Notes under the pieces: generated by a model
What the model saw: only the letters and a program-made list of their open reading frames with translations
The model's database searches: none
Told to the model about the DNA's origin: nothing
Assembly: GCA_964016885.1 (NCBI GenBank)
Contig: OZ024742.1
Location: 109,430,001-109,494,000, forward strand
DNA: 64,000 bases
Direction: 5' to 3'
Origin: Eledone cirrhosa
Lineage: Eukaryota
Program-made: the position numbers and the translations under genes
In this document: positions 6,388 through 57,706 of the stretch, piece by piece
Layout: each line of letters starts with the position of its first letter
How positions within the stretch are numbered: position 1 is the stretch's first letter

Positions 6388-7617
6388 TCGCATCATATCT
6401 CTCTGACAACATCTACGAATCTCGAAGCGTAAGAGCCCGTTTCTCGAGCAAGTCTATCTGCATGAAACAGATAAGATCATGAGAGTTGGGAAGGAACTCC
6501 TTGAGAGATATTCCCTGTGTGATAATCAAAAACTCACACCCAGGGATGTCGCTCAGCAGTATCGCAGTGAATCCATGGATGAAAAACTGCATGCCTATCA
6601 GCAAAAAAATCATGCATGGGTATGTTGCCAGGGAGCTCCAGAGTGAGAGTAATATAGATAAGAAAAGTAGTCTTTCTTGAACCAACAGCCGCTATATTGG
6701 CTCCCACTTTGAAGGATACGCTTTTGCAATCCAGGAATAGAAAATCAACACGAAATACCTGATTCACAAAAGAGATAGGGATGCAGGCAAAACACCTAGA
6801 TGTGATAACAAGTGCAGACTCTGCAGAACTAACATCGAGGATATCACCCATGTCATCAGCAGCTGCCCAAAGATGTCATCGCGGTACTATCTACCTATGG
6901 GGCATCATGTAGTGGCCAAAACACTGTACAATGCAGTTCGTAAAAAAGATAATAAAAACATTAAAAGCTACAACAAATGTGGAAGACATCCATGTACATA
7001 ATATGAAAGAGTACTGGTGGAATGTTCCAGTAAAAACCTCAATAAAATGCAGGCATAATATTATGATATGGGACAGGGAGAAGAAAACATGCACAGTAGT
7101 GGAAATTAGCTGCTCAGCAGATGCCAATATAATATCAAAGATTAGTGAATAGGAGAATATTTATGCAGAACTGATGAGAAATCTGCAGATACTCCACCCT
7201 GATTACACTTTCAGATTTATGCCTGTGATTATTGGGGCACTGGGATATGCTAGTAACTGCGTCAATACAAATCTTGACAAGCTAGGCTTCACAGGAACAG
7301 AAAGAACACAACTAGTTAGGAAACTACAAGTACAATCCATTAATGGAACAGTAAAAATATGTAAAACATTCCAAAAATTTTGCATCTAATAACTGCATAT
7401 ACACATGTACAGATACAAAGCATATACACATGCACACATACAACTCAAAACATACACATCCACACATACAATAACATCCATATCTACACATGCATGCATA
7501 CATACATATCTATCTAGTTGATGTTGTGTAAATTCCAATGAGAGAGTCTTGTGTCTATGTTAGAAACCAACTCTCTCTCTATTGGTAAAACTTTGTGAAA
7601 TTATAAAACCAGAAGAA
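6388..7617 (+). mobile_element. 5'-truncated copy of the R4/Dong-like retrotransposon
   Basis: Near-identical to 11327-12565; ends in CCAGAAGAA followed by (CATA)n. Confidence 0.92.
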
Positions 7618-7700
7618 CATACATACATACATACATACATACATACATACATACATACATACATACATACATACATACATACATACATACATACATACAT

Positions 7701-8309
7701 GGTGGCTGCCAACTCGTTTTCGAGTGCGGCCACTACTTTATATCCATGTAGGAGAACCCCTACCGATGCACTGAACGAGTGTGACTTTTTAGTCCAGCCA
7801 GCGACTTGAAAACTCTGGTACAAACACTACACTTGTGACAATTATTGACACATAGTGCTTTGCCTTTGGTACCATGTGACGACAAGTGCAGAGAGATCTC
7901 CAGATATAAAGCAATGCCTGTGCCGTGAAGCTTTTATAGTGAGCAAAGGCACTGCACAAAGCCAGTCCCACTCTCTTAACCAAGATGATATTTACCAAAA
8001 AGAAGAACAGGTCAACATCATTGGATACCATCAGGGTTGCAGGTGTTATATCAGAGTTTTCCTTCTCCTAGAATTCTGCCTTGACAAAGGCTAAGGGGTC
8101 ATCTCTCCCGGTGATTTTGAATGGCCATTGACTCTTAAGAGCTCCTTTGCCCTTTGACAGGGTTTGTTTTTAGTCCTGCAGGATGTCCAAAGTCACCCTC
8201 CTCACCAAGAAACCTTGGTGGGGGTTGCCAGTTTAGTCGCCAACGACCCGACCATGAGACAGGTTGTTCTGGGATACATGTTACCAGTAGCACCAACTGG
8301 TGACCTGAC
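7701..8309 (-). mobile_element. Short bipartite RTE-derived non-autonomous element, family 1
   Basis: Reverse strand has a 5' module, an RTE-type UTR motif (TCTAGGAGAAGGAAAACTCTG), a C2H2 peptide CSVCTRVFKSLAGLKSHTRSVH* and a (TATG)n tail; homologous to 31675-32232. Confidence 0.75.
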
Positions 8310-8478
8310 ATACATACATACATACATACACATATATATATATTAGATAGAAAGAAAGTAGGAGTTATATACATACATACATACATACATACATACATAC
8401 ATACATACATACATACATACATACATACATACATACATACATACATACATACATACATAATAGATAGATAGATAGATA

Positions 8479-55202: not shown

Positions 55203-55369
55203 GCAAATTCTTTATATGATTGTTATAGTCTGTGTGTGGAGAAATGATATAAGCATTAAAAATAGTGCAAGCATTATAAATATTAAAAATATTTATAATG
55301 CTTGCACTATTTTTAATGCTTATATCATTTCTCCACACACAGACTATAACAATCATATAAAGAATTTGC
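55203..55369. repeat. Perfect 82-bp-arm palindrome with a 3-nt loop
   Basis: Arms 55203-55284 / 55288-55369. Confidence 0.95.
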
Positions 55370-56550
55370 CACCAGATCAACCAACCTAACACTCTTGTTT
55401 ACCTACCTAAGTTCTTCTACTACACGTAACTCTCTGCCACACTATATAAACAAGACGCACGTGCTTGCCACACATATAACATTTGCACTATATAACCGCT
55501 TATTTTCATGTTGTATTTTAACCTGTATTTTTGATTGTATCTTTTAATATGAATGTAATCTCTAAGTGTGTACTGCCACTCTAAATGCTGTAATGAATGT
55601 TGACCCACAATATTTGCATATGTATCTGTATGTCTCTTGGGTGAAAAGGATGTCATATAAGTGTTCATTCATTAATAAATTGCTCCGAAGAATCCAAACC
55701 TCGGTTTGGAGGAAACAGTTGTAAGCACAAAAATGTTTTGAACAGTTCTTTGATTCTTATATTTCATATAACTGCTCTGTAAATCATCTGATGTTTTTAC
55801 ATTGAGCTACTTAACTTACTGGTAATAAGGTAGTAATATATTACTGCCTACCACTATTTAGGGTTTGTATAAAATAAATATATATAACTGCAAAAGGTTT
55901 TTGTATTTACATAACCATAAGTAGTATAATTAATACTATATATATATATATATATATATATATATATATATATATATATATATACATACATACGTATATA
56001 TACTGGTTGTCTGCTCAATACAAATCTTGACCACTTCAGTCTACATGATACTCAGTTCTGGCATAAGATCTTATATTGTTTTTTTTTAGACTAGACCTAC
56101 TTTTAAAAAGCTGCACACAAATTACACATTAGTTTTGGTGCTGCTTGAACTGCCTGTGTATCTTGATAAACTGTGAAATGTCTCTTTTGACCTCCTTGAG
56201 ATTTGCAGATATTGTGGCATATGTGGCGTTGATAAGGGTAAACTGGTTTGTATATTTTATAGTCAGGAGGAAGTGCACTATCCTATACATAGCATTATGT
56301 GAGATGGAAGTCTAGCCTCTGACAGGCAGATTCTACCACAAACTCTACAAGCAGAAAAAGTTCCATTAATTTCATATTCCCTTACTGGTTATATATATAT
56401 ATATATATATATATATATATATATATATATATATATATATATATATATATATATATATATATATATATATATATACTCCTCTTAGTATCTACTTGCATCA
56501 GTCTGTTTTGCCCAAATGTTTTTACACCATTCCAGATTTTTCAATGTGAC

Positions 56551-57341
56551 AACATCGAAGATGTCACCCATGTCAAGCAACTGTCCAAAGATGTAATCAC
56601 GGTACTATCTATCTATGAGGCATGATGTAGTGGCCAAAACACTATATAATGCAATCCGTAGAAAAGATAGCCCCAACAATAAATATATTAAAAGTTGTGG
56701 AAGACATATACATACATAATATGAAAGAGTATTGGTGGAATGTTCCAGTCAAAACCCTCAATAAATTGCCAGCATAACATACCAGATATAATGCTATGGG
56801 ACAGGGAAAAGAAGGCATGCACAGTAGTGGAAGTTAGCTGCCCAGCAGATGCCAATATGATATTAAAGATTAGCAAAGAGGAGAATATGTATGCAGAACT
56901 ATTGAGGAATCTGCAGATACTCCACCCTGACTATACCTTCAGCTGTATACCTGTGATTATTGGGGCACTGGGATATGTTCGTAACTGCCTCAATACAAAT
57001 TTTGAGGAGCTCGGATTCACAGAACCAGAAAGAACGCGACTAGTTAGGAAATTACAAGTACAAGCCATTAATGGAACAGTAAAAATATGTAAAACATTCC
57101 AAAACGTCTGCATGTAATAACTGCATGTACACTTGTAAAGATACAAAACATAGGCACATGCACATGCACATATAACTCAAAACATCCACATCCACACATA
57201 CAATAACATCCATACCTGTACACATGCATACATATCTACCTAGTTGATGTTGTGTAAATTCCAATGAGAGAGTCTTGTGTCTGTTAGAAAATGACTCTCT
57301 CCCTATTGGTAAACATTTATAAAATTATAAAACCAGAAGAA
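56551..57341 (+). mobile_element. Older 5'-truncated R4/Dong-like copy
   Basis: Homologous to 11770-12565 (PDIMLWDREKK..EVSCPAD); ends in CCAGAAGAA followed by a CATA-like tract. Confidence 0.9.
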
Positions 57342-57706
57342 CATAAATACATACATACATACATACATAACATACCATAACATAACATAGAGAAATACAT
57401 TCAAAAGAACATACAGAGGTACGCACATATATACACACATATATATATGTATATATATACGTGCACTGGTGTACATATATGTGTGTAAGTGTTGGCATGT
57501 GTACGGGTTCGTAGGTGTGCTTGTGTCTTTGTGTGTATATGTGCTTAAGTCAACGTCAATTCAGTTAGTCTTAACAACAAAACAACGACAACAACTACAG
57601 CAACAACAGCTATCAACAACTTCACTATTAGTATCATCCAGTAATCGAAAAATCGGGCCTGGAGCAAATAATATCAACAACTAGAATCAATAGTCAATGA
57701 TAATGA

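Follow-up and report, generated by a model that had tools for sequence, protein, structure and literature searches.

A Dong-like retrotransposon family of Eledone cirrhosa resides in (CATA)n microsatellites, which it probably targets

In the genome of Eledone cirrhosa, copies of a Dong-like non-LTR retrotransposon, here called family A, sit in (CATA)n microsatellites in one fixed orientation and 3′ phase. The fixed orientation inside CATA likely arises because the element aims at the repeat, and the explanation that we consider probable, from a purely computational analysis, is that family A inserts into existing (CATA)n tracts by target-primed reverse transcription, with its Myb-like domain reading the repeat.

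Our starting point was a stretch of 64,000 nucleotides of contig OZ024742.1 (the window), which holds four copies of family A, with extents defined by BLAST against the full-length copy 2. The copies and their tracts are as follows:

6388..7617 (start 6382/6388), plus strand: copy 1, 5′-truncated, the last ~1.23 kb of the element (BLAST)
7618..7699, plus strand: (CATA)20 tract, 3′ of copy 1
8309..8477, plus strand: interrupted (CATA)n upstream of copy 2, closing with about four GATA units
8478..12565, plus strand: copy 2, full length, 4.09 kb (BLAST and alignment to a relative)
12566..12660, plus strand: (CATA)22 tract, 3′ of copy 2
13034..13045, plus strand: (CATA)3 at the 5′ junction of copy 3
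13046..13309, plus strand: copy 3, 5′-truncated, end of the ORF and 3′ UTR, 89% identity (BLAST)
13310..13392, plus strand: (CATA)20 tract, 3′ of copy 3, followed by a fragment of the short element E2
56551..57341, plus strand: copy 4, 5′-truncated, older, 87% identity (BLAST)
57342..57369, plus strand: degenerate CATA tract, 3′ of copy 4

The sequence AAACCAGAAGAA terminates all four copies (at 7617, 12565, 13309, and 57341) and has no match on the minus strand of the window. Copies 1 to 3 are each followed by 20–22 perfect CATA units, and copy 4 by a single CATA, then a mismatched unit and five further ones; poly(A) is absent from all of them. The first-pass annotation had described four copies ending at this sequence and running into CATA repeats with no poly(A), and this description holds, with the tract of copy 4 being degenerate. 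On the 5′ side, copy 2 is preceded by (CATA)22 at 8372–8459 and then by the GATA units, while CATA is absent from the 5′ junctions of copies 1 and 4. The junction of copy 1 (96% identity, with the tract counted in the alignment) interrupts another repeat, the rest of which was looked for in the window and not found. Copy 1 and two copies elsewhere in the genome (loci L010 and L012) all have breakpoints only a few bases from element position 2857, in a CATCATA stretch that is possibly a microhomology hot spot or the mark of a truncated subfamily.

Genome-wide (3.0 Gb), a 16-mer from the 3′ end of family A has 6,438 exact matches and a 22-mer from the 5′ end has 577; as only exact matches were counted, 3′ ends number at least 6,438. 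CATAC directly follows 5,128 of the 6,438 exact 3′ ends (reversed-pattern controls gave 5 and 0), and ACATACA lies within 16 nt of 230/284 minus-strand 5′ ends; overlapping matches inflate the corresponding count for the plus strand. For the junctions themselves, we used a sample of 70 loci taken from the top of the list of matches on contig 1 rather than drawn at random; one of them had no alignable end. From these loci, 74 distinct copies were recovered, comprising 55 that are truncated, five of full length, 10 that run past the edge of the locus, and four that are too short. A 5′ junction was scored as positive if a CATA run of at least 8 nt was found within 30 nt of it.

By this measure, 5′ CATA is present at 40 of the 55 truncated copies (33/55 with a 12 nt cut-off) and, once shared breakpoints are merged, in 33 of 47 truncation events. 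The frequency is 22/26 among events with at least 93% identity and 11/21 among older ones. The controls were low throughout: CATA of the opposite polarity was found at 0/55 junctions, CATA 300 nt further upstream at 0/53, CATA in the element's own sequence ahead of the break at 0/47, and a CATA run in 1.8% of 4,000 random 30-mers from the window. Other repeats are rare at the truncated 5′ junctions (TA in 2/47; CA, TAA, and GATA in 0/47). CATA lies upstream of every full-length 5′ end (51/51) and follows the 3′ end of all 74 sampled copies, with the first unit reading CATA in 85/90. The first-pass annotation had allowed that the 5′ flanks might lack the repeat; the 51 full-length and 40 truncated junctions just described indicate that most of them do not. 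It had also seen both (CATA)n and (GATA)n upstream of the full-length copy. Both are indeed there, but GATA occurs at only 3/51 full-length 5′ ends and (GATA)n was rejected as part of the target. An upstream flank cannot have travelled on the RNA of truncated copies, which makes target sequence the best reading of the 5′ tract. Template jumping onto the RNA tail of another family A element explains little, because only 4/55 truncated copies adjoin such a 3′ end.

The remaining 14/47 truncation events lack 5′ CATA; they include 10 of the 21 older events, and copies 1 and 4 of the window are alike in this respect. Where the left flank is itself a repeat (loci L017, L074, and L117, and copy 1 of the window), other copies of that repeat continue without CATA, and the continuation of the cut repeat was not seen on the right side of any of the four. 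Such cut flanking repeats fit truncated elements of opposite polarity, or deletions. Full-length 5′ junctions (L031–L080) show stutters of 4 nt (repeated CAGT, CAGA, or GATA) and a recurrent CCAT-type insert, a pattern that suggests slippage in a four-base register while the 5′ end is joined. The fetched loci yielded no empty site, orthologous or paralogous, but only element–tract–element arrangements, and when contigs from four public runs were compared with copy 4, none joined its two flanks across the element. Our search resolved no target-site duplication, with an imperfect shared stretch in 1/47 events.

Family A is a single-ORF, RLE-type non-LTR retrotransposon with a predicted Myb-like domain, RT, CCHC knuckle, and RLE. 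Its copies have a fixed 3′ end, variable 5′ truncation, and no LTRs. The single ORF of ~1,150 aa is of the length expected for the R4/Dong clade, and many full-length relatives have ~1,130–1,220 aa. In copy 2, the ORF carries two frameshifts and three stops and aligns to residues 6–1151 of an intact relative (P0004). Its domains are:

8803..9021, plus strand: N-terminal three-helix domain, predicted to be SANT/Myb-like (structure model)
10203..11003, plus strand: reverse transcriptase (RVT_1, E 2.3e-24), with FVDD near 10776
11752..12345, plus strand: CCHC zinc knuckle and RLE with RH, PD, E, and K motifs (sequence and fold)

The N-terminal model has a pLDDT >90 in its core and its top matches are of SANT/Myb type (Z 6.7, rmsd 2.6, 72 aligned residues), which is a middling result and weak if taken alone. 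The same region is 35% identical over 55 aa to the N-terminus of a TAA-associated family of this genome, family C (pairwise E 2e-5), and its sequence contains no C/H zinc finger. The best PDB matches of the RT are R2 proteins. For the C-terminal 221 aa, the predicted fold (pLDDT 94) has seven matches at E up to 0.001, all of them CCHC/RLE regions of R2 (TM 0.62–0.72). A profile built from 27 relatives matches R2 from the RT through the C-terminus (E 1e-62), with no match to R2 before about position 376. No Exo_endo_phos (APE) match was found in the ORFs of the window or in the full-length relatives P0001 and P0004. Rfam gave no ribozyme, only sub-threshold miRNA matches driven by the microsatellite, and no lead from the ESM Atlas reached 0.9. 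Family A looks aged, because none of 20 full-length copies that we examined has an intact ORF, the longest being 703 aa.

The CATA tracts of the window are shared with short elements that lie in the opposite polarity:

7699..8309, minus strand: E2, a short element of 611 bp, tailed by (TATG)n and bordered by a tract at the opposite end
12660..12995, minus strand: E3, a second short element, related to E2, with a TATG tail
13391–13578, minus strand: E2 fragment after the tract of copy 3
31675–32234: a further short, non-autonomous element of E2/E3 type

We take E2 and E3 to be RTE-like; E2 encodes a C2H2-like remnant that resembles the C-terminus of the RTE-like ORF in locus L095. There are 9,501 exact matches in the genome to the tract plus the end of E2, and the tract also lies at the far end of 28/30 E2 elements. 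In 24 of these 30, no end motif of family A, or of the related family B, occurs within 260 nt of the tail; CATA tracts therefore exist independently of family A. Of the 74 family A ends, 34 have E2 or E3 in the next 400 nt. Two other minus-strand features of the window touch CATA tracts, namely an RTE-like 3′ end at 13846 (13846–14550) and a degenerate RTE-like APE-RT element (21540–24240), the 5′ side of which meets a tract at 24240–24415. Elsewhere, the window contains an array of ~520-bp units with long inverted arms of 97–99% complementarity (928–3759), pieces of an element with RT and zf-RVT domains that is presumably L1/Tx1-like (42816–43970 and 4188–4742), and a 30-bp minisatellite array (59786–61202). 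A near-perfect palindrome at 61855–63294, with arms of 418 and 307 nt, 100% complementarity and 11 nt separating the inner arms, may be genuine or an artefact of the assembly.

Two further families of the same genome help to place family A. Family B has 56% RT identity to family A and 4,786 exact 3′ matches; CATA is found at 21/27 of its truncated 5′ junctions and 28/31 of its 3′ ends. Family C, which was found via a TAA-flanked metagenome relative (loci L221–L260), has TAA at the 3′ end of 30/30 loci read by eye, many intact frames of 1,141 aa, and a long shared 5′ leader. Also read by eye, the first tail units of family C contain CAA variants that are common to its copies, which suggests that its tails are partly carried on the RNA. 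Among 40 of 80 metagenome loci that were examined, several distant relatives have TAA on both sides (e.g., L124, L126, and L143) and none has CATA at the element end; the only one that falls in the CATA clade, L121, is on a contig that stops without a tract. Within the TAA group, L135 has a (TTA)n end, of opposite polarity to TAA, and L136 and L146 have poly(A) ends. Among the best 120 homologues, the only informative named one is from Argonauta hians; a look-up of protein clusters added no informative names, and viral and prokaryotic collections held no relatives.

The RT tree comprises 62 rows, 19 of 81 having been dropped as redundant or long-branch, and has neither named references nor a reliable root. 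Families A and B, the Argonauta protein and 26 unlabelled rows are united by a 100/100 branch of length 0.44, in agreement with the 81-row tree, and all 12 TAA-labelled rows lie outside the A/B branch. This CATA clade makes up 33/62 rows, among them many unnamed animal-associated proteins; with the root placed on two long-branch rows of unknown identity, unnamed TAA-flanked elements form its sister group (99/95). Proteins from other sources intervene between A and B, so the CATA target that the two families share is probably old. The initial assignment of the element as R4/Dong-like is supported by its RLE architecture and its kinship to TAA-flanked Dong-like elements, and family A probably belongs to the R4 clade. 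The proposal of a tetranucleotide-specific lineage likewise gained support, from CATA on both sides of the copies, from the fixed polarity, and from a clade apart from the TAA elements.

Among known systems, Dong elements (Bombyx Dong, DongAg, DongBg, and ostracod Dong1/2) combine a single ORF, RT, and RLE with a microsatellite target (PMC7998251; PMC3812793), and R4/Dong proteins have an N-terminal SANT/Myb-like domain with zinc fingers absent (PMC7998251). Family A shares the single ORF, RT plus RLE, predicted SANT/Myb-like N-terminus, and microsatellite target; it differs in that its target is (CATA)n, whereas that of Dong is (TAA)n (PMC3812793). The TAA target of Dong had been recognized from the outset and ascribed to the RLE domain; the target stands, but PMC7998251 argues for the N-terminal Myb-like domain. 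Family A works like Dong but is not a Dong in the strict sense of insertion in (TAA)n, which was seen at 0/47 truncated 5′ junctions, the 3′ ends carrying CATA. The TAA-associated family C has 37% RT identity to family A and lies on the opposite side of the 100/100 branch. The RT, CCHC, and RLE of family A resemble those of R2 (R2Bm, R2Tg, and turtle R2) by profile and predicted fold, but R2 has N-terminal zinc fingers plus Myb and a 28S rDNA target (PMC7998251), compared with no zinc fingers and CATA in family A. The insect Waldo elements (WaldoAg1, WaldoAg2, and WaldoFs1) target ACAY repeats (PMC3812793, whose source is an R1-clade paper), which include the CATA motif. Waldo is APE-type, however, whereas family A has a C-terminal RLE and no detected APE, so the common target is convergent. 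Togen, a NeSL-related RLE element that targets (TG)n (PMC4640811), and the microsatellite-specific HERO families are, like family A, RLE elements with microsatellite targets, albeit different ones. Dong-R4 families have been annotated in Octopus vulgaris (PMC13282606; PMC9115989), with no target described in the sections of those papers available to us. That Dong-like and other non-LTR elements target microsatellites has long been known, and CATA is a new target for this habit of Dong-like elements when set against the literature without Repbase. Our literature search found no report of a CATA- or TACA-specific R4/Dong element; Repbase and some key papers lay outside it and may list this target.

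Other explanations could account for parts of these data. It is unlikely, in our estimation, that targeting resides in the RNA tail and not in the protein, with a (CAUA)n tail annealing to breaks or loose nicks in the tracts and priming there. CATA does follow in fixed phase at every 3′ end, even where 5′ CATA is missing, as an RNA tail would predict; the CAA variants of family C indicate tails that are partly on the RNA; and the RTE-like elements with a TATG tail occupy the same tracts in the opposite polarity. There is also the precedent of some R2s being retargeted by RNA homology arms (PMC13586686). Yet the predicted Myb-like domain and the RLE motifs are retained, families A and B keep one target and phase at 56% identity, and family A has no common tail variant except CACA at the second unit (8/90, some of them duplicates).

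Still less credible is a repeat made by the element itself, as an encoded 3′ tail plus a 5′ repeat generated by RT slippage or template jumping and later expanded. The 4-nt stutters (repeated CAGT and GATA) at full-length 5′ junctions are in keeping with this reading, as are the ~30% of truncated events without 5′ CATA and the failure to find an empty site. Against this, many 5′ tracts are long and compound and merge into (CA)n, (CTTA)n, or degenerate runs; tract-flanked breaks range from element position 598 to 3857; and the same tracts also border E2 elements that have no family A or B end close by. A very improbable alternative is that insertion is random and copies are then selectively retained in low-constraint DNA rich in microsatellites. 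The window is very rich in microsatellites, and Waldo-A and Waldo-B of Drosophila have been proposed to accumulate passively (PMC3812793), but retention would not account for a polarity so strict that no junction out of 55 is opposite, for the rarity of other repeats at the junctions (two TA in 47, and no CA, TAA, or GATA), or for a signal that is gone 300 nt away and is stronger in younger than in older copies.

We therefore return to the targeting of existing tracts as the probable explanation. By analogy with R2 biology, the protein would bind a CATA tract and its RLE would nick the TATG strand at a fixed phase. Reverse transcription would then start at the nick, perhaps aided by a few CATA units present on the RNA through read-through, and the repeat would likely be read by the predicted N-terminal Myb-like domain. 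Because every insertion would leave tract on both sides, targets would regenerate and copies of several families may stack in one tract.

We also suggest, more tentatively and as something that falls a little short of probable, that the CATA families represent a sister lineage of Dong that is old and widespread but undescribed, and in which a switch from a three- to a four-base repeat came about via the N-terminal Myb-like domain. If so, the TAA and CATA families of one genome would form a matched pair in which domains could be swapped as a test, and RLE and RTE families, using opposite strands of shared tracts, would supply one another with targets.

How RLE retrotransposons change their target is an open question, and one of practical interest, as tools for gene insertion are being developed from R2 proteins (PMC13586686). 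An intact TAA family and two CATA relatives in the same genome offer a natural comparison through which specificity might be traced to the Myb-like domain, the RLE, or the RNA tail. For Eledone cirrhosa itself, insertion of this kind would be one route by which microsatellites gather stacks of elements in the genome.
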